In this document: one piece after another, positions 1-12,506 of the stretch
How the letters are laid out: every line of letters begins with the position of its first letter
Numbering within the stretch: position 1 is the stretch's first letter
From: Marinicella sp.
Lineage (GTDB): Bacteria; Pseudomonadota; Gammaproteobacteria; Xanthomonadales; Marinicellaceae
Length of the DNA: 64,000 nucleotides
Assembly: GCA_965230295.1 (NCBI GenBank)
Contig: OZ246001.1
Location: 384,001 to 448,000, forward strand
Direction: 5' to 3'
The notes under the pieces: model-generated
Database searches by the model: none
What the model was told of the DNA's origin: nothing
Seen by the model: the letters and a program-made list of their open reading frames with translations, nothing else
Made by a program: the position numbers and the translations under genes

Positions 1-657
1 CTCTGTTAATGACACTTGATTCTGTTCGTTCATGAAATCAACCTCGTGCATGATACCAAACAAATGTTGATAAAAACTTTGCATTTTGGCTGCATCCGCA
101 AAGGGCACCTGCGCTTCTTTTGAAACCCCGTTATTCGGTATGCTGGTACCTTCTAGCAGCTGTTTTCTGATTTCATAAGCTGCCACTTGCACAGCGGCAG
201 CCAAGTTGAGTGAAGAGTAAGCAGGGTTGGCGGGGAATTTAACCAAATAGTGACAGCGTTGCATTTCATCATTGGTCATACCATAACGCTCTTTCCCGAA
301 CAGCAAGGCCACCTGCTGAGTAACTGCTGCTTTAACCATCAACTGCACCGCTTCAGCCAAATCAATCACAGGAATGTTCATGCCTCGGTTGCGAGCACTG
401 GTACCAAACACCACAGTACACGGTGCAATGGCTTGATCCAAAGTATCATGAACATGGGCATTGAATAACACGTCGTCAGCACCAGAGGCACGTGCTGTGG
501 CTTCAGCACTGGGGTAATCCGTGGGTTGGATTAAATGCAAGTGTGATAAACCCATGACTTTCATGGCGCGGGCTGCGGCGCCGATGTTACCGGCATGAGA
601 GGTGTTGATCAGGGCGAATCGGATGTTTTCTAATCTATCCACAATGGTGTCAATCAT
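1..657 (-). CDS. trmJ: tRNA/rRNA methyltransferase, TrmJ/SpoU family (3' end runs off the window)
   Basis: Manual translation from ATG at 657: MIDTIVDRLENIRFALINTSHAGNIGAAARAMKVMG, then SPOUT motifs (LLFGKERYGM, YSSLNLAAAVQV); divergent from suhB as in many gammaproteobacteria; absent from the ORF track because it is truncated. Confidence 0.9.
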   Translation of the reverse strand, partial: MIDTIVDRLENIRFALINTSHAGNIGAAARAMKVMGLSHLHLIQPTDYPSAEATARASGADDVLFNAHVHDTLDQAIAPCTVVFGTSARNRGMNIPVIDLAEAVQLMVKAAVTQQVALLFGKERYGMTNDEMQRCHYLVKFPANPAYSSLNLAAAVQVAAYEIRKQLLEGTSIPNNGVSKEAQVPFADAAKMQSFYQHLFGIMHEVDFMNEQNQVSLTE

Positions 658-730
658 GTTAAAGATTTGGTATCATACGCGGTTCGCCAATTAACATCAA
701 TGCACCACAGCAACGGACCCCTATAAGCCC

Positions 731-1519
731 ATGTCACCAGAACAAAACATTGCCAAAAAAGCCGCACTGAAAGCCGCCAATTCCATAGAACAACTGATGT
801 TCAAGAATGAACTGCTTTCGGTCAATAAGAAGCTCAACAATGGTTTTGTGGATCAAGCCATAAAAGTCAGCTTGAATGATATATTTTATACCCTCAAAAG
901 GGCTTATCCAGAAGATGAAATTCAAACCGATGGCGAGACTTTAACTGAGTACACCAATCCAGAACGTGTGTGGTTGATCAATCCATTGATAGGCGTCACT
1001 AATTTTTTACATGACATCCCACATTGCGCCATCAGCATCACCTTTATGGAAAACAACAAAACCAAAGAAGCCTTGGTTTACAACCCCATCACCGATGATG
1101 AATACATGGCAGGTAAAGGCAAAGGTGCTTTTCTGAACCAACGTCGCTTGCGCATCAGTAATCAAAATGAGGCCGAAGAATCGTTCATAGGTACCAACTA
1201 TGCAGATGAGAAGAGTAAACTGGCCGCACAGTCTTTGGCCATGAGGACCATAGGCAAGCAAGTCGCAGATGTTCGTGTCATGGGCTGCCCCGCCTTGGAT
1301 TTGGCTATGGTCGCTGCCGGAAAGTTCAATGCCTATTGGCAAATGGGCATGTCACCATCTGAAATGCTGCCTGGCATATTGTTGGTTGAAGAAGCCGGTG
1401 GACAATGTATGGATTTTGCCGCCAAAAGGGCTTTTACAGACAACCAACAAATGGTGGCAGGTAACCTGAAGGTATCAGCTTGGCTGTCGGCACAGCTGAA
1501 AAATATTTACAGCCAATAA
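731..1519 (+). CDS. suhB: Inositol monophosphatase family protein, SuhB-like, with degenerate catalytic motifs
   Basis: IMPase-fold motifs (TNFLHDIPHCAISI, GKGAFLN, GCPALDLAMVAAGKF, LLVEEAGG); trmJ-suhB synteny. Confidence 0.8.
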   Translation: MSPEQNIAKKAALKAANSIEQLMFKNELLSVNKKLNNGFVDQAIKVSLNDIFYTLKRAYPEDEIQTDGETLTEYTNPERVWLINPLIGVTNFLHDIPHCAISITFMENNKTKEALVYNPITDDEYMAGKGKGAFLNQRRLRISNQNEAEESFIGTNYADEKSKLAAQSLAMRTIGKQVADVRVMGCPALDLAMVAAGKFNAYWQMGMSPSEMLPGILLVEEAGGQCMDFAAKRAFTDNQQMVAGNLKVSAWLSAQLKNIYSQ

Positions 1520-1549
1520 AAAAGGCACTGTTACCATCAACAGTGCCTT
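1518..1549 (-). terminator. Intrinsic terminator between convergent suhB and the DUF4252-like gene
   Basis: 11-bp stem AAGGCACTGTT/AACAGTGCCTT; the A-run on the left gives a U-tract on the minus strand. Confidence 0.7.
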
Positions 1550-1614
1550 ACATTGCGATACAGAACTTCGTTAAACAGCTGACTTAGGTGGTCACCTAAG
1601 AGGCTCAGTTCGAA

Positions 1615-2133
1615 TCACAAATTCAAAGTCAGACCTTTCAAACCGTCAACATCCACATTGAAGTTTTTGGTCAAGTCTTTCAGATTTGCGACATCAATTT
1701 CTCCATCCATGCTGATGAATACGAACTCATCCCCGGCTTCAAAGACCATGATGGATAAATCGCTCAATGTCATGCCATCAACTTTGGCCATGATGTGAAC
1801 ACGCTCATCGCCTTCGACCACTTTAACAATTTCTTCAACACCATTGCGAGCCAAAGCACTGACAGTATCACTCATCCAATCACTGATGTCAGCGGCATCA
1901 ACCGCATCAGTTAACTCATACACTTTGATCGACAAGTCGTTCAATCCGGACAACACCGCTTGTGCTTCTGGGTCATCTGCAGACAGCATTTTGGCCATGC
2001 CTAACATGCCAGGGCCCAAAGTGATTTTCACATTGGCTTCAACGCCCAAGATACTTTCTAGCTCATCAAAATCTCTGGCCCAAGAACTGACTGAGAACAG
2101 ACATAAAATCAAAACCATCATTAACTTTTTCAT
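1615..2133 (-). CDS. Secreted DUF4252-like protein
   Basis: Signal peptide MKKLMMVLILCLFSVSSWA; DUF4252-like pattern (LSIKVYE, VKVVEGDERVHIM, EFVFISMDGEID). Confidence 0.65.
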   Translation of the reverse strand: MKKLMMVLILCLFSVSSWARDFDELESILGVEANVKITLGPGMLGMAKMLSADDPEAQAVLSGLNDLSIKVYELTDAVDAADISDWMSDTVSALARNGVEEIVKVVEGDERVHIMAKVDGMTLSDLSIMVFEAGDEFVFISMDGEIDVANLKDLTKNFNVDVDGLKGLTLNL

Positions 2134-2219
2134 ACATTTACCTCAATTAAAATTTGCTATCCGCCATGGATTTATGTCTATCAAACGAGCTTTGATTGTG
2201 TTTGTTACAAAAAACAGCC

Positions 2220-2227
2220 ACAGAAAT
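2220..2227 (+). repeat. Left target-site duplication ACAGAAAT
   Basis: Identical to 9186-9193; 8 bp is the usual IS1595-family duplication length. Confidence 0.9.
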
Positions 2228-2250
2228 CGCTTAAATTGATCAAATGCACA
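2228..2250 (+). repeat. Left terminal inverted repeat CGCTTAAATTGATCAAATGCACA
   Basis: The reverse complement of 9163-9185 is CGCTTAAATTGAGCATACGCACA (3 mismatches). Confidence 0.9.
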
Positions 2251-2275
2251 AAACCTATTAAAATAATAGCTTAAC

Positions 2276-2303
2276 TTAGCACCTATTTAAAAATAGGTGC
2301 TAA
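2276..2303. repeat. Subterminal palindrome TTAGCACCTATTT-AA-AAATAGGTGCTAA
   Basis: Perfect 13-bp arms with a 2-bp spacer, 25 bp inside the left TIR. Confidence 0.75.
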
Positions 2304-2389
2304 TCAATTACTAATTGATAATATATTCAATAGGCCGTCCAAATTACCCAGTTGCCTCAGAAAACCATCTCCCAATAGACTTATACATA

Positions 2390-2806
2390 TTAAGTGTTCT
2401 GAATTTTATTTTTGATTTTTTCTTTTATTTTGACCAAATCAATAATAAGAATGTAAGAATCTAACTTTTCAAAAATCATAGATGAAAGTTCGTCTTTATC
2501 AAGAATTTCTATAGACTCATCATTAAGAGCAAAATATTGATGTTTTTCATCTAATGATTGCCATTCTATTTTTTTTTCTTTGTACGTTTCGAGATGCTTT
2601 TTGATTTTAGTAATTGACATTCCTGTATTAGTTAATGATTTTAGGCAAACAAGTAACATTAAATCACTATAAGAATATCGTCTTCCAACACCTTTCTTGC
2701 CAGAAGTCAAACTAGCTTCCAAAATTGAATGCCGCTGATAATAATGAAGCATATGGACGCTATGCCCTGAAATTTTTGATGCTCTTTCTGTACTTACTGT
2801 TTCCAT
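2390..2806 (-). CDS. MerR-type helix-turn-helix transcriptional regulator
   Basis: STERASKISGHSVHMLHYYQRHSILEAS...GRRYSYSDL is a MerR HTH pattern; the ATG at 2806 is preferred over the TTG at 2842, which lies inside the promoter palindrome. Confidence 0.75.
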   Translation of the reverse strand: METVSTERASKISGHSVHMLHYYQRHSILEASLTSGKKGVGRRYSYSDLMLLVCLKSLTNTGMSITKIKKHLETYKEKKIEWQSLDEKHQYFALNDESIEILDKDELSSMIFEKLDSYILIIDLVKIKEKIKNKIQNT

Positions 2807-2811
2807 ACTGA

Positions 2812-2851
2812 ATATTATAATTGAGTATTGAGCAATACTCAATTATAATAT
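2812..2851. promoter_or_regulatory. 40-bp palindrome forming overlapping divergent sigma70 promoters, and likely the operator
   Basis: ATATTATAATTGAGTATTG-AG-CAATACTCAATTATAATAT; plus strand TTGAGT(2821-2826)-N17-TATAAT(2844-2849); mirror copy on the minus strand (2842-2837, 2819-2814). Confidence 0.8.
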
Positions 2852-2900
2852 AATTACAAATATGTGGTATAAACCCTATCTAATTTGAACAGGAGATGTA

Positions 2901-4106
2901 ATGTCATCATTCCGTTACATGGGAACAAAGAAATACTTAGCAACGAAAGTAAAGCGTTCTATCGACATTGCTTCTAAGCATGGGCAAATGGCCGATTTGT
3001 TTTCTGGCATGGGGGCTGTTGCTCGAGAATTTTCCTCAGAACGTTCTGTCTTTTTAAATGATGCAATGACATTTCCTACTGTCTGTTCTAAAGCATATTT
3101 TTTAGATAATGACCTGAAAATTAACGATCATTTAATAAAAGAAATTTATTCATTGTTCAGTAGGCACAGGGCTTTGCTAAGGTCAAAGTTTGAAAGGAGA
3201 ATAAAGCAAGAAAAGAAAGCTGTTCTTGGTGGAAGCGAATCTTTGAATGATTGGATGCTCCAGGCTCCACATGTTGGCAATAGCACACATTACAACAATA
3301 TGAAGAATGCTGCTAAACTAGAGTCTGGGCCATTGAATTATCAACTGATAACTTTATATTTTTCAGCTTCATATTTTAGCACTTCTCAAGCAATTGACCT
3401 TGATGCTTTAAGATACGCAATTGAATCCTTGTCTAAGAGGGATGGTAAATCTCCATTAATAGCAGTTTGGTTATCAACTGCAAGTGTTTTGATTAATGCT
3501 CCAGGTCATTCTGCCCAATTCTTAAAACCAAACAACGATTCCTCTTACAATAAAATATGCAGAGGCTTAACGCGAGACGTTTGGGCGACATTTGTTGACT
3601 TGTTGAGCAATTTTTCTCCTTGTGGAAGTCTATCATGGAGAAAAAGTAATAAGGTTTCTAAGAGTGATGTTTTAAAATTACTGGATGTTGGTCTTCCATC
3701 AAACGTATCTGTAGTTTACGCCGACCCACCTTATACTGGAGACCAATATTCAAGATATTATCACGTTTTTGAAACCATGTTGTTATACAACTATCCAACA
3801 TCAAAGGGATGTGGAAGGTATCCTGAAGGTAGGTTTACCTCACCATTTTGTTTAAAAACAAAAGTAGTTGACTCATTTGAACAAATGTTTTGTAGGATTA
3901 TTGACCACTCCGTTCCGCTTGTATTATCCTATCCATCAAACGGATTATTGTCCAAAGTGGGGGTCGATATTATTGAACTAGCAAATGACACCTTTAGGAA
4001 AATTGATAAAGCTGAAAGCCAAATCAATCATTCGACAATGGGAGCTTCCAAAGGAGCTCAAAAAAAATCTGTTAAAGAATATATATTGACATGTTACCCT
4101 GCATAA
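2901..4106 (+). CDS. Adenine-specific DNA methyltransferase (D12/FokI-like, alpha class)
   Basis: RYMGTK, ADLFSGMG (SAM-binding motif I), VVYADPPY (motif IV), YSRYYHVFETM; RBS AGGAGA. Confidence 0.88.
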   Translation: MSSFRYMGTKKYLATKVKRSIDIASKHGQMADLFSGMGAVAREFSSERSVFLNDAMTFPTVCSKAYFLDNDLKINDHLIKEIYSLFSRHRALLRSKFERRIKQEKKAVLGGSESLNDWMLQAPHVGNSTHYNNMKNAAKLESGPLNYQLITLYFSASYFSTSQAIDLDALRYAIESLSKRDGKSPLIAVWLSTASVLINAPGHSAQFLKPNNDSSYNKICRGLTRDVWATFVDLLSNFSPCGSLSWRKSNKVSKSDVLKLLDVGLPSNVSVVYADPPYTGDQYSRYYHVFETMLLYNYPTSKGCGRYPEGRFTSPFCLKTKVVDSFEQMFCRIIDHSVPLVLSYPSNGLLSKVGVDIIELANDTFRKIDKAESQINHSTMGASKGAQKKSVKEYILTCYPA

Positions 4107-4122
4107 ATACAAAGGAGTTCCA

Positions 4123-5043
4123 ATGAGTGATCTTGAAACATTAGAAATTAGCCAAATAGAAAGAGATCCGCATAACCCAAGAATAAACTTCCCTCAAAAT
4201 GAGCTAAATAAATTATCTGAATCAATTGATAAAGCAGGTGTTTTAGTCCCAGTGGTTGTTTATAAATATAAAGATAAGTATCGACTCTTGGACGGAGAAA
4301 GAAGGTGGAAATGTTGCAAAAAACTCGGTTTGACGAAAATACCAGTAATTATTATTGGAGAGCCAACTGAGGAAGATCGATTAACTTGGATGTTTAACAT
4401 TCATCAGGTACGAGAACGTTGGCAAGATATGCCAACAGCATTGGCATTAAAGAAACTGGTAGATGAAACCGGCATTACAGATAAGAAAGAATTAAGCAGG
4501 CTAACTGGATTATCTTCAAAGCTCGTAGATCAATATCTTTATATTGTAGAACTCCCTCAAGATATGCAGGATAGTATTGCAAATAAAGATATGGCAATGA
4601 ACTTTTTCTGGGAGTTGAAACAAGTTTTGGAAAACCTAAAGAAAAAGAGGCCTAATATTTATAATGACTATGAAGCTGACGAGCTCATGAGAAAATTTGT
4701 GGATAAAAGAGCAAGTAACGTCATTACTGATACAGTCTCACTTCGTAACGCCAATTATATTATTCAAAAAGCATCAGAAGATGATCCTGAAAATATCAAA
4801 GAAGGAGAATTGGATGAAGTAATCAGGGACATGATAGATGACGAAAGTAAGTCAGTTAACGATGCATATGAAGAAACTGTTATGGTTGCTGTTGAGCTTG
4901 ACAAACTGTTAACAAAATCTATGTCTGTTGTTAAGGCATTCACAAGATTATTAGGAAAAGCTCAAGAAGAGCAAGAACGCTTAGAAATTAAGAATATTGG
5001 TAATCAGATTATTAAACAACTTGACACAGCATTAGACAATTAA
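4123..5043 (+). CDS. ParB/Srx N-terminal domain protein
   Basis: NPRINF...LSESI...GVLVPVVV...YRLLDGERRWKC (ParB boxes I/II), followed by an HTH-like segment KKELSRLTGLSSKLVDQYL; RBS AAGGAG. Confidence 0.85.
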   Translation: MSDLETLEISQIERDPHNPRINFPQNELNKLSESIDKAGVLVPVVVYKYKDKYRLLDGERRWKCCKKLGLTKIPVIIIGEPTEEDRLTWMFNIHQVRERWQDMPTALALKKLVDETGITDKKELSRLTGLSSKLVDQYLYIVELPQDMQDSIANKDMAMNFFWELKQVLENLKKKRPNIYNDYEADELMRKFVDKRASNVITDTVSLRNANYIIQKASEDDPENIKEGELDEVIRDMIDDESKSVNDAYEETVMVAVELDKLLTKSMSVVKAFTRLLGKAQEEQERLEIKNIGNQIIKQLDTALDN

Positions 5044-5933
5044 TGAGTGAAAGCAATGAGAAATACTTGGATGCTCTGCTTAAATGTAAGTCAGTAAGTT
5101 CATGCGTTATTCCTGATAGCCCGATCATTTTTTCAAATACCGCATGGACTCCCGATGCTATATGCAAAATAAATAATAAGGATACATTGGTATGTATTCA
5201 CTCAGTAGATGATGAAATCCCACATTTTCTAATTAAAAGGTTGCTGGCAACAGAAACATCTGATTATCAAGTATTAATTATTACTGGTTACAAAATTCTA
5301 AGAAATCTTGAACATTTTAAAAAACTTTTAAAAATCAATTCACTGGTATCATTTTATGGCTATCAGTCAGAGCTTATGACTGAACCTGAGAATATTGCAT
5401 TAGCCGTTGCAAAATCAAATATCAAAGTCAAAAGGGAACTACTACTTTATTTACTTGAGTTAAGCCGAAATGCTGAGACAAGTTGGGATAAAGGTAAAAG
5501 GTTTGAGCAATTGTTGTGTCTCTTTTTTTCCCAAATAGAAGATTTTCATATTTTTAGCTCAAACTACAGAACTGAAACGGAAGAAATTGATGTAGTTATT
5601 CAAATACGTGAAAGTTGCTCTACGCGATGTTGGGCGAGATTTGAAGCACCTTATATTTTTATTGAGGCAAAAAATCAAGCGAGCAAAGTTGGCCAGCGTA
5701 TTATTTCGACACTTATAGGAATATTGTCTGTAAAAGGTTTTTCAACAAAACTAGGAATAACTATTTCTATGAATGGATTTACAGCGGATGCAAAAACTCA
5801 AGCACTGAGAAATAGCGATGCGCAAAAAAAAATAATTTTGTTAACAGCTGATGAAATCGACACATGGATTCAAACAGGACGTTCACTAGATGATCAGCTT
5901 GAACAGAGAATTAGCGAAGCATTGATTGATTAA
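5043..5933 (+). CDS. Mrr-like PD-(D/E)XK restriction endonuclease
   Basis: KGKRFEQLL...EEIDVV...IFIEAKNQ...GITISMNGFTADA; start overlaps the ParB stop (TAATG). Confidence 0.8.
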   Translation: MSESNEKYLDALLKCKSVSSCVIPDSPIIFSNTAWTPDAICKINNKDTLVCIHSVDDEIPHFLIKRLLATETSDYQVLIITGYKILRNLEHFKKLLKINSLVSFYGYQSELMTEPENIALAVAKSNIKVKRELLLYLLELSRNAETSWDKGKRFEQLLCLFFSQIEDFHIFSSNYRTETEEIDVVIQIRESCSTRCWARFEAPYIFIEAKNQASKVGQRIISTLIGILSVKGFSTKLGITISMNGFTADAKTQALRNSDAQKKIILLTADEIDTWIQTGRSLDDQLEQRISEALID

Positions 5934-6004
5934 GTCGGGACTACTACAGATTAAGATAGTTACCTATAAAGCAGCTTACGAAATTCAATAGTGCCTTAAT
6001 TAAG

Positions 6005-6928
6005 TTATAGAATATCTAAGAGTTCTGAGTACAAATATTCATCATCTTTACCTTCATAGTATAGCCTTATAAATTTGTTTCTTTTTTTTAAACTTAATCC
6101 CATGAATTTCATATAATGTTTTAGCATCGTTCCCTTATATGGTGGGTGAAACTCCATACAAACACCTTCAATAATAGAAAACACTTTATTCATCTTTAAA
6201 AAATCTTTCTTTATCCTGGTTAGGTCTTTTGTAACTGTTAATTGGCTAAAAGTAACTTTTCTTCGCCAAAAGTTGGTAAATCTTTTTTTGCACATAAAGT
6301 ACAACAACATATACTCCTCACTGAATCCAAAAACACTAAAACAAGCAAAAGAATAATCAAATATCTTTTGTAAAATTAAATCTCTATTGGCAAGGTTGTT
6401 GTCAATTTCTGACTTCATTAATAACAGCATAAATGATGACAACGCTTTTTGAATATCAGTGCCAGTAAATTTATCGATTTGACCTTCTAAATTTTGAGTA
6501 TCTATACTGTAAACATCACCATCTAAGTTCAAAAGGTCAATATACACTTTTAAATCTTTTATATTCCTACCCAAGTCATCGATGTCTGAATCATCCTTAA
6601 CATCAGCTAAAAACCAGTCCCAAATTGGCATATCAAAAATATCTCTGGAACCAGGGAAATAATATTCAGTGTATTTCAATGTTTTTTCGTTTGGGCATGG
6701 CGGATTTGCAGAGTTAACATATTTCTGGTATTTACTCGTTGCGTTGTAAACCTGATTCTTTTCGCTTTTGTTATATGCACGTTTTTTACTTTTTTTTCTT
6801 AGAAATGAGTGCGACTCAAATTTTTCACCATAATTTATAATCGCTCGAATTTGGTTACCATTTCTACAGTTGCCTATCATCATGACAGTAGAAATCCAAA
6901 CTTTTATCTTTAATTGCAATAAATTCAT
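6005..6928 (-). CDS. Hypothetical protein, possibly with an N-terminal HTH-like region
   Basis: 307-aa ORF in the AT-rich element; KYQKYVNSANPP...YFPGSRDIFDMPIW segment. Confidence 0.65.
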   Translation of the reverse strand: MNLLQLKIKVWISTVMMIGNCRNGNQIRAIINYGEKFESHSFLRKKSKKRAYNKSEKNQVYNATSKYQKYVNSANPPCPNEKTLKYTEYYFPGSRDIFDMPIWDWFLADVKDDSDIDDLGRNIKDLKVYIDLLNLDGDVYSIDTQNLEGQIDKFTGTDIQKALSSFMLLLMKSEIDNNLANRDLILQKIFDYSFACFSVFGFSEEYMLLYFMCKKRFTNFWRRKVTFSQLTVTKDLTRIKKDFLKMNKVFSIIEGVCMEFHPPYKGTMLKHYMKFMGLSLKKRNKFIRLYYEGKDDEYLYSELLDIL

Positions 6929-7063
6929 GAAAATATAGTAGCGTATATTTATATGTATTTCAGTTACTTATCTCTATGAAGTATACTTTTAAGAAGTAAA
7001 AGGAACCTTCTAAATCGCGATTATTATCACTAAAATAATATAGATGTATAGGAGTGACTTGAC

Positions 7064-7318
7064 ATGACCAAGAGCGAATTTAGAGACTATATTGAGGAGA
7101 AGTTAATCAGTGAGCACGGCATCCTCATTTCGGGTGAGGCTTTAGCAAAAGTGCTGGGGTTCAATTCGAAGGCTGCATTCAGAAAAGGGGTTGAACGAGG
7201 AACCGTTGAAATTCCTATCATGACATTCAAAAACAGGAGAGGCAAATTTGCTGTTTCTTCAGATGTGGCTGAATGGATTACAAATAACCGGTTTGATTCA
7301 TTGGAGAGTAGCAAATGA
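7064..7318 (+). CDS. Small HTH DNA-binding protein (AlpA/excisionase-like)
   Basis: LISGEALAKVLGFNSKAAFRKGVERG...NRRGKFA; RBS AGGAG. Confidence 0.7.
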   Translation: MTKSEFRDYIEEKLISEHGILISGEALAKVLGFNSKAAFRKGVERGTVEIPIMTFKNRRGKFAVSSDVAEWITNNRFDSLESSK

Positions 7319-7573
7319 ACTAAATCAGCAAGAGAAGAAATGAAAAAACCAAATGGTTGCAGCCATTTGGTTTAATCGGTTGTCATTAATTAACGAATCA
7401 AGACAATAATCCGATTATAGCATTTCCGAACCTCATTTTGTCAAGACAAACAAGCTATTTTGATAGCTTGATAAGCCTTCTTTTGCATTTTAAAAATATG
7501 GCTGCGCGAGGCTAAGCAGTCATCAAATTGGAGAATATCATGTTAATGATCCAAAACTATAATGGAGGAATTT

Positions 7574-8653
7574 ATGCCTCAAAGCTATAGACAATCGAGT
7601 AAGAGAAGAAATATCACCCTTAATGATATTTACAAAATGTCAGAACAAGAAGCAATAAATTTCATTGCAAACATTAGGTGGGGTTCAAAAACAAAGCAAG
7701 TGTGTCCCAATTGTTGGGTTTTCGACAAGCATTATTCTAAGAAGAAAAGAAACCAGTGGGTATGTAAACATTGCAATCATACATTCAGTATTACATCTAG
7801 CACTGTATTCGCTAACAGAAAATGTAGTGTCAAAAAAATATTGAAACTATTATTTATATTTTGCAATTCTGCCAAAGGCACAAGTGCCAATGAATCCACT
7901 GGTTTTCTTGGTTTGAGCCATAAGTCTATTTGGTTATCTAACCATAAGATCAGAGAAGGATTACTTAGATCTAGAGATTTAAGTCAATTGAACGGTATGG
8001 TACATGTTGATGGTGCTTTTTTTGGTGGCAAAAGACGCCATGGACGTATTCGAAATTACAAGATCGCTCACAAGCATTTTGAAGCAAAGATTGCTTCCAA
8101 AGGTAAGAAGAAATTACCTATGAATGCGATTCAGCGTCGAAATGCCTATATTAGACGGAAGAACAGAAGGGTCGTTATGGTATTTCGTGAAGTTGATCCG
8201 ACCAAAGGAATCGGAGCTGTGAAAACTAGAGTAACTGTTGTTCGAAATGAAAGCGAAGATTCAGTCAAGCCACATACTGAGAGGTTTATCCAAGCGGGCA
8301 GTACTGTTTGGACTGATGAGCATAAAGCGTATAATCACTTGTCGAAACAACATAGGCATGAAACAGTTGAACATTCAAAAGAATTTATGACTAAAGATGG
8401 GGTTCACAACAATCATGCTGAGTCGTTTTTCTCGAGGCTAAGAAGATCTGAGTATGGTGTATTCCATGGCATGAGGCCTCAGTACATGATTGATTACGCC
8501 AATGAAATGTCATGGCGGGAAGATATGCGTAGAAAATCTCTGCTAGAACAATTATCAGATTTAATTGTTAGAGTGTTTTCGGTTGGTGAATCAATCTGGT
8601 GGTGCGGTTATCACCAGGGACATCGACGCAATGATGAATTGTTAAACTTTTAA
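7574..8653 (+). CDS. IS1595-family DDE transposase
   Basis: Zn ribbon CPNC...CKHC, HTH, catalytic VHVDGAFFGG / VWTDEHKAY / HNNHAESFFSRLRR; RBS GGAGG favours ATG 7574 (track start 7562). Confidence 0.93.
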   Translation: MPQSYRQSSKRRNITLNDIYKMSEQEAINFIANIRWGSKTKQVCPNCWVFDKHYSKKKRNQWVCKHCNHTFSITSSTVFANRKCSVKKILKLLFIFCNSAKGTSANESTGFLGLSHKSIWLSNHKIREGLLRSRDLSQLNGMVHVDGAFFGGKRRHGRIRNYKIAHKHFEAKIASKGKKKLPMNAIQRRNAYIRRKNRRVVMVFREVDPTKGIGAVKTRVTVVRNESEDSVKPHTERFIQAGSTVWTDEHKAYNHLSKQHRHETVEHSKEFMTKDGVHNNHAESFFSRLRRSEYGVFHGMRPQYMIDYANEMSWREDMRRKSLLEQLSDLIVRVFSVGESIWWCGYHQGHRRNDELLNF

Positions 8654-9133
8654 TCTGTACTTTCGAAATGGGCCTTTGTAGCCTTTGGGCATTCTTTCAA
8701 TGACTCCCTGGTTACAAAGGTTCTTTACCCTATACCTGACAGAATTATTCAAAGAGTCATCGGTGACATTTACTTTTAGTTTTATACTGCCTTTAGTAGC
8801 AACAAAGAGACTTATCTGCGTTATGGTTCCACAGCCATCATTAAATGTATCAAAACTATCATAGATAAGTTTTGTTAACTCCCCATGATTTAATTTAGAT
8901 CCTAAGACTTGAGGCTGTTTGGGTGGAATAATTTCAGGCGAAATTTTAATATCATGTAGGCTAAGTGTCCTATCAATGGCTTGTAAATCATATTTTAGCT
9001 CAGAAATTTTCTGTTTAGTCCATTGTAGATAAATTGATCTTTCCCTCTCAATACGGTTCAATTCACCATGTGTTTCAGCACGTTTCTTTATAAGCCAGTT
9101 TAACGAAGAAGGGATACGATTTGCCATAGACAA
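8642..9133 (-). CDS. Hypothetical protein (coiled coil plus possible winged helix), convergent with the transposase
   Basis: 163-aa ORF overlapping the transposase 3' end by 12 bp and starting just inside the right TIR. Confidence 0.7.
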   Translation of the reverse strand: MSMANRIPSSLNWLIKKRAETHGELNRIERERSIYLQWTKQKISELKYDLQAIDRTLSLHDIKISPEIIPPKQPQVLGSKLNHGELTKLIYDSFDTFNDGCGTITQISLFVATKGSIKLKVNVTDDSLNNSVRYRVKNLCNQGVIERMPKGYKGPFRKYRLKV

Positions 9134-9162
9134 ATTGTATCCCTTGAACTGAAATAGAGCTA

Positions 9163-9185
9163 TGTGCGTATGCTCAATTTAAGCG
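9163..9185 (-). repeat. Right terminal inverted repeat
   Basis: Inverted match to 2228-2250. Confidence 0.9.
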
Positions 9186-9193
9186 ACAGAAAT
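9186..9193 (+). repeat. Right target-site duplication ACAGAAAT
   Basis: Identical to 2220-2227. Confidence 0.9.
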
Positions 9194-9218
9194 AAAAAAA
9201 GCCCGAATAATCGGGCTT
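9194..9218 (-). terminator. Intrinsic terminator of the yajC-secDF operon
   Basis: AAGCCCGA/TCGGGCTT stem with an A7 run (U-tract on the minus strand). Confidence 0.8.
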
Positions 9219-9246
9219 CTTCATGATTCTATTATTTGGCTCCTGC

Positions 9247-10197
9247 TTATGGAATATGATCCAGATTAGCGCCTTCTTTCTCCACCGGGATCAAATCTTC
9301 ACGGCTGATACCCAAAGCCAAAGTGGTGGTACTGGCCACGAATATTGAAGAATACGTACCAATGATCACACCCACAATCAGGGCAAAAGCAAAACCATGG
9401 ATCAAAGCACCGCCAAAAAAGAACAATGCCAACAACACCAACATGGTGGTGAATGAGGTGATCACTGTTCTGGACAGGGTCTGGCCTATGGATTTGTTGA
9501 TTACTTGCTCTGTAGTTGACTTGCGACCTTTGCGGAAGTTTTCCCTGATGCGGTCAAACACCACAATGGTGTCATTCAAGGAGTAACCAATCACTGCAAG
9601 CAATGCTGCCAGTACTGTTAAGTCGAACTCCACTTGCCAGATGGAAAACACCCCAGCGGTGATCACCACGTCATGAACCAAGGCTGCAATGGCACCCAAA
9701 GAAAAGCGCCACTCAAATCGGATGGTGACATAGATCAAGATGCCGATAATGGCATATAACAATGCCAAAGAACCTTGTTCCACCAATTCATCGCCTACTT
9801 GTGATCCCACATAATCGACTTTTGATACTTCAGCCGAGCTGTCCAATTGTTTCAGAACACCCAGAATTTCATTACTTAACTTGGCTTCATCAACACCTGC
9901 ATCGGCCTCAGATTCACCTTGGGGTGGCAAAGTGATTTCGATGTCCGTGCTGGCCCCAAAATTTTTAACCACTGAATTATCGTATCCGTTGTTTTCAAGC
10001 TGTGTTCTGATGTCGGTGATGACTGCGGGTTGATCAAACTTCACCACCACGACCGTGCCACCGGTAAAGTCCAACCCAAAATTCAATCCTCTGGTGACCA
10101 AAGACCCCAAAGCAACCACAATCAAAGTCAGTGATAAAAACATCGCTGCCTTGCGGTGCCCCATGAAATCATACTTAATATTTCCTAATATATTCAT
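9247..10197 (-). CDS. secF: Protein translocase subunit SecF
   Basis: GLNFGLDFTGG, IGYSLNDTIVVFDRIREN, GTYSSIFVA; start at MNILGN after RBS AAGGAG (track start 10245). Confidence 0.96.
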   Translation of the reverse strand: MNILGNIKYDFMGHRKAAMFLSLTLIVVALGSLVTRGLNFGLDFTGGTVVVVKFDQPAVITDIRTQLENNGYDNSVVKNFGASTDIEITLPPQGESEADAGVDEAKLSNEILGVLKQLDSSAEVSKVDYVGSQVGDELVEQGSLALLYAIIGILIYVTIRFEWRFSLGAIAALVHDVVITAGVFSIWQVEFDLTVLAALLAVIGYSLNDTIVVFDRIRENFRKGRKSTTEQVINKSIGQTLSRTVITSFTTMLVLLALFFFGGALIHGFAFALIVGVIIGTYSSIFVASTTTLALGISREDLIPVEKEGANLDHIP

Positions 10198-10207
10198 TAT
10201 CGACTCC

Positions 10208-12061
10208 TTATATGGCAATTGACTGCAGTTTTTTCTTGCGACCATAAATCAAATTAACAATCGCTCTGGACAACACAATGGCGGTGAACATGGAAGTCAC
10301 GATCCCAACACTCAAAGTAACGGCAAAACCTTTAATGGGCCCAGTACCAAAAGCAAACAACACCACCGCTGCAATTAAGGTGGTTACATTGGCATCAGCA
10401 ATGGTTGAAAAAGCCTTGTCGTAACCTGCTTTGATACTACCCTGTATGGTATTTCCTTCCCGAATTTCTTCTTTAATCCGTTCAAAAATCAACACATTGG
10501 CATCCACTGCCATACCAACGGTCAAAACAATTCCGGCTATTCCCGGCAGGGTCAGTGTGGCACCAAACAATGACAAACAGGCCACCATCAGTACCACATT
10601 GATGGTCAATGCGATGTTGGCAATGACACCAAACATGCGGTAATAAATCAGCATAAACACCAACACCATGGCCAAACCAATTTGCACAGATACCACACCT
10701 TTATCGATGTTGTCCTGACCCAAAGAAGGCCCAATGGTGCGTTCTTCGACAATTTGAACGGGCGCGGCCAAAGCTCCCGCTCGCAATAACAAGGCCAATT
10801 CAGCGGCTTCTTTTTGGGTGAAACCACCCGTGGTCTGGAAGCGGTTAGAAAACACGCCATTGATACTGGCGTTACTGATCACTTCTTCTTTGTCTCGGTA
10901 TTGCATTTCACCGGCTTCATTTTTACCAATGGGAATGCGTTCTTTAAAAACCACACCCATGAAATTGCCTACATTGTTCTTGGTGAAATCCAACATTCTG
11001 GCAGCGCCAATGCTGTTGAGTTGTACATTCACCGCATGTTGTCCGGTCTGCTGATCAATGGTGGCCTGGGCCCCGGTTAGCTGATTACCCGTTGCGATGA
11101 CCCTGTTTTTCAGATAAATCGGCTGACCATTGGACTCAAAGTACAAAGTGCTTCCAGGGGGTGTTCTTCCTGTTTGATAGGTTCTTTGTGCTTCTGCATC
11201 AAAACTGTGTGTGGCCCGGTATTCTAAAGTGGCGGTGGCGTCTAAGATATTCTTCGCAACTGTGGTGTCCTGAACACCTGGCAATTGGACCACAATGCGA
11301 TCCAAACCTTGACGTTGAATGATGGGCTCAGCCACTCCAATTTCATTCACCCGGGTTCTTAAAGTGGTTAAGTTCTGATTCAGCGCATTTTCCTTGATGC
11401 TATTTAAAGATTGTTCACTCAATAAGCCTGTGAGCGTATATGAATCAGCACTGATGTCTTCACTGATTGACAATTCTGTGAAGTCGTCTTCAATCAGATC
11501 TTTGGCTTGGGTTAAACCAGCTTCATCCCTGAATCCAATCACCAAGCGATTGGCTTCCCACTTGAGTGATTTCTTAGGGATTTTCTGCTTGATCAATAAA
11601 GCGGTGATGTCAGAACGAATTTGTTTTTTCTTGTTCTCTTCTGCTTTGCTCATATCCACTTCTAACAAGAAGTGGACACCACCACGCAGATCAAGACCCA
11701 GGTTCATGGCACTGCCGCCCAAATTTTCCAACCATTCAGGTACATTGGGTTTTAGATTCATCGCCGTATCAAATCCAGCCAGATCCCGTTTCAACAGATC
11801 CTGTGCTTGTCGTTGACTGTCCAAGTCAGCAAATTTCACAATGGCCGTCTCCCCATCAATTGACACTTCATCAAAAGCAATTGATTCTTCACTCAGTAAG
11901 TTGGTTACTTTATTCAGTGTCGGCTGGGATACGGGCACATCTTCCTTGGCTTTGATTTGCACCACAGGGCTTTGGCCGTAGATGTTGGGTAAGGCATACA
12001 ACCCGCCAAAAGCCACTATCACCATCACCAAGATGTATTTCCATGCAGGATATCGATTCAT
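10208..12061 (-). CDS. secD: Protein translocase subunit SecD
   Basis: LGLDLRGGVHF, IVVQLPG, GPSLG, GMAVDANVLIFERIKEE. Confidence 0.97.
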   Translation of the reverse strand: MNRYPAWKYILVMVIVAFGGLYALPNIYGQSPVVQIKAKEDVPVSQPTLNKVTNLLSEESIAFDEVSIDGETAIVKFADLDSQRQAQDLLKRDLAGFDTAMNLKPNVPEWLENLGGSAMNLGLDLRGGVHFLLEVDMSKAEENKKKQIRSDITALLIKQKIPKKSLKWEANRLVIGFRDEAGLTQAKDLIEDDFTELSISEDISADSYTLTGLLSEQSLNSIKENALNQNLTTLRTRVNEIGVAEPIIQRQGLDRIVVQLPGVQDTTVAKNILDATATLEYRATHSFDAEAQRTYQTGRTPPGSTLYFESNGQPIYLKNRVIATGNQLTGAQATIDQQTGQHAVNVQLNSIGAARMLDFTKNNVGNFMGVVFKERIPIGKNEAGEMQYRDKEEVISNASINGVFSNRFQTTGGFTQKEAAELALLLRAGALAAPVQIVEERTIGPSLGQDNIDKGVVSVQIGLAMVLVFMLIYYRMFGVIANIALTINVVLMVACLSLFGATLTLPGIAGIVLTVGMAVDANVLIFERIKEEIREGNTIQGSIKAGYDKAFSTIADANVTTLIAAVVLFAFGTGPIKGFAVTLSVGIVTSMFTAIVLSRAIVNLIYGRKKKLQSIAI

Positions 12062-12105
12062 ATCGTTCTCTTTTTTTGGTTTAAATTACAGTTATGTTGG
12101 CTTAC

Positions 12106-12435
12106 TTACTTCAGAGATTTGATGGTTCCCTTGGGCAAGACTTTAGCCACTGCACTTCTTTGTACGTGGATTTCTGTACCTGGCGCAATTTCAACTTTGA
12201 CGAATGCTTCGTCGACCGCCACGATGGCCCCCAACGTTCCACCATTGGTAATCACTTCATCACCAACAGCCAAGGCATTGACCATTTCATTGTGCGCTTT
12301 CATGCGTTTGTTCTGAGGGCGAATCAACATGAAATACATGATCACAAAAAACACCCCAATGAAAATCAAAGTTCCAAAAGGGTTGGCTGCTTGACCACCT
12401 GATTGGGCCATGGCGTCAGATATAAAAAAATTCAT
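12106..12435 (-). CDS. yajC: Preprotein translocase subunit YajC
   Basis: YFMLIRPQNKR, GDEVITNGG; upstream of secD. Confidence 0.96.
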   Translation of the reverse strand: MNFFISDAMAQSGGQAANPFGTLIFIGVFFVIMYFMLIRPQNKRMKAHNEMVNALAVGDEVITNGGTLGAIVAVDEAFVKVEIAPGTEIHVQRSAVAKVLPKGTIKSLK

Positions 12436-12506
12436 CTTTAATCCCGTATCTAGTAAAATAAAAGCGCGCTATTATAGCACCACAGACTCAACGATATAGG
12501 ACTCAG

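Follow-up and report, generated by a model that had tools for sequence, protein, structure and literature searches.

How did 6,958 bp of low-G+C DNA come to lie between secF/secD and a DUF4252 gene in a Marinicella sp. genome, and what does it carry? The question arises in a 64,000-nucleotide stretch of contig OZ246001.1 (positions 384,001 to 448,000 of the forward strand; hereafter the window, from whose first letter all coordinates are counted), where the DNA in question occupies positions 2228-9185. The overall best explanation, and in our judgment a very probable one, is that this DNA is an IS1595-family transporter insertion sequence (tIS) with a core of four genes and a restriction-modification (RM)-like cargo, and that its insertion beside a transcription terminator would reflect active choice of such sites.

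Ends, transposase and empty sites

The following features define the element and its insertion site.

2220..2227, no strand: left copy of the target-site duplication (TSD), ACAGAAAT (direct reading)
2228..2250, + strand: left terminal inverted repeat (IRL), CGCTTAAATTGATCAAATGCACA (direct reading, repeat search, genome pattern search)
7562..8653, + strand: IS1595-family DDE transposase (tnp) with N-terminal zinc ribbon (PF12762, PF12760, NF033547; likely start 7574, 359 aa)
9163..9185, - strand: right terminal inverted repeat (IRR; direct reading, repeat search, genome pattern search)
9186..9193, no strand: right copy of the TSD, ACAGAAAT (direct reading)
9195..9222, - strand: intrinsic terminator of host secF, the target landmark, outside the element (12 pairs, T tail)

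The 8-bp TSD is perfect, with ACAGAAAT read directly at both 2220-2227 and 9186-9193, and IRL and the reverse complement of 9163-9185 agree at 20 of 23 nt, also by direct reading. A repeat search independently paired the two element ends (24 nt, 88%), and a degenerate 22-mer of both ends matched 2 sites only in the 4,008,074-bp single-contig genome, in which the element is single-copy; control matches numbered 0. The G+C content of sequence windows was ~0.42-0.48 (about 0.45) in the flanks and 0.28-0.41 inside, with 0.343 for the whole element. Eight open reading frames (ORFs), the transposase and seven others, each of at least 84 aa, lie between the ends. A preliminary description of this DNA had proposed a complete IS1595 element with exact ends; the inverted repeats, the perfect duplication and the one intact transposase on which it relied were all confirmed, and the search that it suggested for further copies with the same ends returned nothing from the genome beyond the two ends themselves. 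Chance repeats and the action of another recombinase were considered and rejected on the basis of the single-copy tnp, the occurrence of the end pattern at 2 sites only, and the lack of an integrase among the ORFs.

The transposase gene, present once in the genome, encodes a protein with clear matches to PF12762 (E 3.8e-37), PF12760 (E 1.2e-10), and NF033547 (129.7 bits, cut-off 75). When 28 transposases were aligned, the catalytic residues D150, D252, and E287 and the zinc-ribbon residues C48, C51, C68, and C71 were invariant. The motif AESFFSRLRR (residues 286-295) had been taken to point to the ISNha5 subgroup, but A286, E287, R292, R294, and R295 are invariant across these 28 diverse homologues, down to 34% identity, so the motif is not diagnostic of a subgroup. 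Named database matches of the transposase are labelled just "IS1595 family transposase", and tblastn against plasmids recovered only distant matches with this label (at most 33% identity).

Positions 1-12500 of the window were compared with 40 related genomes. Six aligned congeners (G022, G010, G007, G008, G003, and G021) lack the element and have its flanks joined within about 10-90 nt, the flank-to-flank gap being 12 nt in G022, 10 nt in G010, and 31 nt in G007. In the alignment of these six, a conserved spacer leads directly into the same terminator; homology to the congeners ends at 2211-2214 in the left flank and resumes at 9186-9195 in the right flank. These joined flanks correspond, to within 0-16 nt, to the empty site that the preliminary description had named as a check. 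Because the flanks are joined in the six aligned congeners, we conclude that the 2228-9185 segment moved as one unit, and we hold it very likely that the element is real and moved in this way. The secF terminator, located by an independent terminator scan (9222-9195), begins 1 nt past the right TSD copy, folds at -22.2 kcal/mol (z -6.5), and is conserved in the 6 congeners. A recent, if undated, insertion is plausible from the perfect duplication, the single copy, and the foreign G+C content.

The content of the secF-DUF4252 spacer varies among species. G012 (L124; C90:1067-6902) has 5.8 kb of other genes there (ATP-grasp, S41 peptidase, and AraC), and G006 (L125; C242:2275-4013) has 1.7 kb with a single 505-aa ORF. 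Both were considered as further insertions at the same site and rejected, the G012 genes being ordinary and the G006 ORF having no Pfam match.

Core genes, cargo and an inner end-like sequence

The remaining features of the element are listed here.

2336..2357, + strand: inner left-end-like sequence, CGTCCAAATTACCCAGTTGCCT (end comparison with sister elements)
2390..2842, - strand: MerR-family helix-turn-helix (HTH) regulator, cargo (PF13411, E 1.1e-7; likely true start Met at 2806)
2812..2851, no strand: perfect 19-bp inverted repeat with a 2-nt spacer, between the MerR and methylase genes (repeat search)
2901..4106, + strand: D12-class N6-adenine DNA methyltransferase, cargo (PF02086, E 4e-13; PADLOC MTase_II, E 1e-25)
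4123..5043, + strand: ParB/Srx-like protein with ParB_N and HTH_ParB domains, cargo (PF02195, E 4.8e-18; PF17762, E 8.6e-7; TIGR00180, 87.3 bits)
5043..5933, + strand: Mrr_cat PD-(D/E)xK nuclease, cargo (PF04471, E 2e-8; Atlas 0.95 to the Mrr_cat cluster)
6005..6928, - strand: orf307, all-helical, function unassigned, core gene divergent from orf84
7064..7318, + strand: orf84, small probable HTH protein, clade-specific core gene upstream of tnp (PF11112, weak)
8642..9133, - strand: orf163, N-terminal long helix and C-terminal winged helix, adjoining IRR and convergent with tnp (likely start 9127, 161 aa)

The right 3.2 kb of the element comprises the four core genes orf307, orf84, tnp, and orf163, and the cargo is a four-gene block (2390-5933) forming the left 3.6 kb. 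Seven passenger ORFs had been counted previously; three of these (orf307, orf84, and orf163) recur with the transposase in relatives and belong to the core. Likewise, the earlier figure of ~5.3 kb of cargo upstream of tnp holds as a distance (2228-7561) but not as a measure of cargo, since ~1.3 kb of it (orf307 and orf84) is conserved core. When all eight element proteins were used in tblastn against related loci, orf84, tnp, and orf163 were found to travel together. Of the 71 loci with room for it, 14 have an orf84-family gene upstream of tnp, and all 14 are in the clade of the study element. This clade has eight complete members (the study element, G003, L025, L027, L041, L045, L121, and L122), every one of which has an orf307-like gene (seven by alignment, L027 by ORF list). 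The orf307 homologues are 270-330 aa long, stand beside and divergent from orf84, and share motifs. No match to orf307 was obtained in Pfam, PHROG, or Atlas, and fold searches with it were uninformative (Foldseek best E 1.3; VIA best Z 8.3, to designed helical proteins). For orf84, a weak PrtN/excisionase-type similarity was detected (PF11112, E 0.028; E 3.2e-4 for the G003 homologue).

The distribution of orf163 is wider. Its family profile finds an ORF at 69 of the 91 transposase loci; of the 70 with at least 700 nt downstream of tnp, 59 have one. This ORF is nearly always convergent with tnp and beside the right end. The family comprises 1,725 cluster representatives at E<=0.001; Pfam matched 0 of 18 representatives tested, save for one sub-threshold coiled-coil match. 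The structural model (predicted local distance difference test score 81) shows a helix of 50 residues and, at the C-terminus, a winged helix; the fifty VIA entries listed were mostly winged-helix domains (best Z 8.7), and the best Foldseek match had an E of 0.026. A DNA-binding role is likely for the orf163 family, which also gains a genomic context here.

Three loci show other arrangements of core genes. L018:9489-10802 (G003:C3) contains homologues of orf84 (75% identical) and orf307 (38% identical) with no transposase in 19 kb and no clear end repeats; the pair may be what remains of an element, or the two genes may also occur in mobile elements of a different kind. Two tandem transposase homologues are present at L028:7252-9440 (an Acidobacteriaceae contig) and two adjacent orf163-family genes at L026, which may represent nested or tandem elements.

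Within the cargo, the methylase, ParB-like, and nuclease genes are tightly packed, with the start of the nuclease gene overlapping the ParB stop, and the MerR-like gene is divergent from them. The methylase translation carries the FSGMG motif predicted to bind S-adenosylmethionine and the putative catalytic DPPY motif, as expected, with PF02086 and the PADLOC MTase_II match, of the methyltransferase of a Type II-like RM system; the ParB-like protein carries a GERRW motif, and the N-terminal half of the Mrr-like nuclease is uncharacterised. The 19-bp inverted repeat holds two divergent promoter-like sites and is probably the operator of the MerR/methylase intergenic region. The same four-gene module, 50-74% identical (MerR homologue 50%), occurs with its palindrome inside the G003 element, where its position and orientation relative to tnp can differ. 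These cargo domains bear out the earlier proposal that a single-transposase element carries an RM-like module. Judged from its genes, the cargo would be a regulated RM-like defence or addiction module.

The left end of the element is composite. The inner sequence at 2336-2357 lies in left-end orientation 108 nt inside the outer left end, shares 18 of its first 20 nucleotides with the right end of the G003 element, and is closer to the ends of the G003, G010, and G004 sister elements than to the element's own ends. No partner duplication or right-end relic was found for it. It is probably the relic of an earlier end; the last transposition of the 2228-9185 element used the outer ends. A second internal end relic was seen in the 8,965-bp element L121 (G298), whose right-end-like sequence at 10590-10609 matches sister-element ends at 16-17 of 20 positions. 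The two relics imply that elements of this group exchanged or nested ends in the past. A terminator-like hairpin (2276-2303, TAGCACCTATTT...AAATAGGTGCTA) separates the outer left end from the inner end-like sequence.

Insertion sites of related elements

Relatives were delimited with a script that sought perfect 8-bp direct repeats flanking inverted repeats around each transposase in the 91 loci. This yielded 24 distinct elements, to which 2 from larger genome stretches and the two-contig G003 element were added. The delimited relatives span 1,690-9,366 bp. The G003 element, at about 19 kb, is longer: its parts (L016:5407-11783 and L017:1-12618), which a contig gap separates, sum to 18,979 bp, and GTGGTTGA both precedes its left end (L016) and follows its right end (L017). 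In addition to the RM-like module, its cargo includes astacin, subtilase, and metallo-beta-lactamase (MBL)-fold genes.

An insertion was scored as terminator-adjacent when it lay at -2 to +5 nt relative to a hairpin whose stem was perfect, at least 8 bp long, and flanked by A/T runs. All eight complete, orf84-bearing clade elements had such a position, compared with 0/19 delimited elements of other clades and a background of 427/117,591 positions in the same loci (0.36%). L025 and L027 adjoin one and the same orthologous terminator; they are oppositely oriented, have different duplications, and show the same offset. The near-identical elements L040 and L041 stand at two different terminators. 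The eight clade duplications have no common consensus. Among elements with one end in view, a terminator was present on the visible side of L040, L048/L049 (an imperfect stem, judged by eye), and L120; none was found on the visible side, the only side in view, of L019, a member of the study element's clade, or on the visible side of L020, L024, L032, L042, L044, and L047. In a quick transposase tree of 81 rows with support from the Shimodaira-Hasegawa-like approximate likelihood-ratio test (SH-aLRT), all 8 terminator-labelled rows fell in one clade (SH-aLRT 99).

The tIS vehicles described here can hold from 3.6 to about 15 kb of cargo, in which methylase, RM, or defence modules predominate; DNA-methylase modules were found in seven of the eight complete clade elements. 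The methylase is of the D12 class in the study element and G003, a C5 methylase accompanied by an HATPase_c_3 protein in L027, L041, and L121, Eco57I-like in L045, and an N6_Mtase with Methylase_S in L122. The 6,857-bp element L025 (Cellvibrio fontiphilus) has no methylase module; two RVT_1 reverse-transcriptase genes (L025:11241-13852), which may be a defence-associated pair, lie between tnp and the orf163 homologue and reveal a second cargo slot, downstream of tnp.

A sister clade is found inside a comM-like Mg-chelatase gene in both orientations; its transposases are 31-36% identical and its ends read CGGnATTATGTAGCA. Such comM-like flanks were seen in eight metagenome loci (L079, L082, L089, L093, L094, L102, L103, and L113), and in all four comM-clade loci tested the Pfam Mg_chelatase match is interrupted close to profile position 115-119. 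A DUF6471 gene is divergent from tnp in each of the six elements tested, and four of six fully delimited cases have GAATTC-like 8-bp duplications. All 8 comM-labelled rows form a separate clade of the same 81-row tree (SH-aLRT 99).

Mechanism, rival explanations and known systems

The single DDE transposase, with its zinc ribbon and D150/D252/E287 residues, acted on the two outer 23-bp inverted repeats, and the whole segment entered the 8-bp target ACAGAAAT, which lies at the secF terminator's foot and was duplicated in the process; the chemistry could be either cut-and-paste or copy-in. The products of orf84 and orf307, possibly with that of orf163, would steer insertion to the A/T tract beside the G+C-rich terminator hairpin, a site where no gene is interrupted and which is shielded from read-through transcription. 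Within the cargo, the MerR-type regulator would control the methylase/ParB/nuclease operon through the palindromic operator. A broader reading, which we advance tentatively, is that one tIS clade amounts to a programmable "safe-harbour" DDE transposon that spreads RM and other defence modules, in which clade-specific accessory proteins (orf84/orf307 here, DUF6471 in the sister clade) might direct a single-subunit transposase, in the study clade to the base of a terminator hairpin and in the sister clade to one stretch of codons within a comM-like gene. If true, an IS framework would have arrived anew at a division of labour like that of Tn7.

Targeting of terminators is probably mechanistic, but the same adjacency could arise by selection, were insertion broad and only harmless intergenic insertions to survive to sampling. 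IS1595 elements are said to favour AT-rich sites, terminators carry A/T tracts, all sampled insertions are old enough for fixation in genomes, and the eight duplications lack a consensus, each of which suits a selective origin. Selection would nevertheless permit any position in a spacer, and the eight clade insertions are confined to the -2 to +5 nt interval that none of the 19 others occupies; moreover, L025 and L027 are independent insertions that share a terminator and an offset yet face opposite ways, and near-identical elements chose different terminators (L040 and L041). We therefore consider selection an unlikely account of the pattern. Far less probable is the view that the locus holds not one transposon but an IS (orf307 to IRR) beside an unrelated RM island, with the left repeat being a chance match or a stray solo end. 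The dissimilar inner end at 2336 and the variable placement of the G003 module relative to tnp can be read in its favour, but the perfect 8-bp duplication brackets the outer ends and none pairs with the inner one, all 6,958 bp are missing from congeners, the end pattern occurs at only two sites in 4 Mb, and G003 has the same module inside its own delimited element.

The chances that the cargo acts as an RM system appear to us evenly balanced. The competing possibility, to which we give real weight although somewhat short of even, is an orphan methylase together with a ParB-like/nuclease pair that serves other defence, addiction, or processing of element DNA. PADLOC returned only MTase_II and weak PDC-S02 matches, with no characterised system beyond a Type II methyltransferase, and tblastn of the Mrr-like nuclease against plasmids gave no match; Mrr_cat is a generic nuclease domain, and ParB-like proteins are not standard RM parts. 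The arrangement of the genes argues the other way: methylase and nuclease share one tight operon with an overlapping stop and start, the divergent regulator and palindromic operator resemble those of controlled RM systems, the module is conserved as a unit in G003, and clear RM sets are present in sister elements, for instance an MT-A70 methylase and a BglII-like nuclease in L070, and, in both L056 and L122, N6_Mtase together with Methylase_S.

Several points weigh against our preferred explanation, an actively targeted tIS with RM-like cargo. The congeners used for the empty site are other species, 70-77% identical, so that the breakpoints are fixed within 0-16 nt and not to the base, and a search of sequencing runs for the locus returned one run, probably the source, and hence no same-species exact empty site; no transposition event was observed. 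The composite left end, with its second end at 2336, means that the present structure arose by rearrangement. The hairpin criterion was chosen after the first cases had been seen, L025 and L027 share one terminator among the eight cases, and survival bias could contribute to the adjacency, insertions there being harmless. The presence of orf163 in the comM-targeting clade too means that it cannot alone explain terminator choice. For the cargo, Mrr-family nucleases are often methylation-dependent, a property that would sit poorly with a partner methylase.

The element is a tIS of the IS1595 family, an already known kind. It has the DDE_Tnp_IS1595 domain with intact D, D, and E residues, the zinc ribbon, TIRs, and the 8-bp TSD, and it holds four cargo genes (2390-5933) with one transposase between two inverted repeats. 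Siguier, Gagnevin and Chandler reportedly described tIS of the IS1595 family, in the ISNha5 group, in 2009. The ISNha5 subgroup has passenger genes, a length of several kb (range 3.4-7.9 kb), and the end consensus CGGnnTT. The study element, at 6,958 bp with passengers, lies within that length range, and its end is CGCTTAA; left ends begin CGC in 8/8 clade elements and CGGnATT in 19/19 other-clade relatives, and the ISNha5 consensus would fit the latter and not the former. Passages in PMC11891212, PMC3129680, and the TnCentral preprint, citing 2009 work, describe tIS of the IS1595 family; the preprint's passage defines them as having an IS-like structure with passenger genes inside the ends. 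As stated in the relevant passage of PMC8101967, the zinc-ribbon domain is absent only from the IS1016 group within the family. The excerpt of PMC11891212 also reports "transcription regulator" passengers for ISNha5, which may correspond to the orf84 and orf163 types. The study element resembles ISNha5-group tIS in having one IS1595-type transposase, TIRs, an 8-bp duplication, and passengers inside the ends, and it may differ in its CGC ends; ISNha5, ISBos1, and ISNov3 are the named elements of that subgroup. The searchable papers gave no instance, among ISNha5-group tIS, of a core of four genes, of insertion next to a terminator, or of RM/defence cargo, nor any report of terminator-adjacent insertion by IS1595-type elements, although subscription papers and supplements may hold one. 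Against the tIS described in those papers, the element stands out for the apparent targeting of terminators throughout its clade, for the conservation of its four core genes, and for a cargo biased towards RM and defence.

Safe-site insertion, a target type that depends on accessory genes, and defence/RM cargo are shared with Tn7-like transposons. Those elements use TnsABC with TnsD/TniQ, that is, several proteins including an ATPase, with dedicated target selectors and defence-rich cargo, whereas the study element has a single DDE transposase of the IS1595 type, accompanied by small HTH or helical proteins for which a targeting role is proposed. Group IIC introns are also known to insert beside intrinsic terminators and thus use the same hairpin landmark, but they are retroelements that rely on RNA-DNA pairing and carry no cargo, unlike a DNA transposon with an 8-bp duplication. 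The IS110-family elements ISPpu9 and ISPpu10 are reported to be inserted in repetitive extragenic palindromic (REP) sequences, likewise structured palindromic intergenic DNA, and differ in using a DEDD-type, bridge-RNA-guided recombinase with no 8-bp duplication by a DDE transposase. Controller-protein Type II RM systems have a methylase/nuclease operon, a small regulator gene divergent from it, and a palindromic operator. The study cargo shares this layout and differs in its MerR-type regulator, ParB-like gene in mid-operon, and Mrr_cat nuclease.

Of the ways in which a single transposase moves genes, tIS have been studied least, and the elements described here land with near base-pair precision beside terminators, a cost-free site for the host. 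If the accessory genes set the target, the clade would provide a compact system in which to test how target specificity is gained by a DDE transposase, and possibly a small tool for safe-site insertion.

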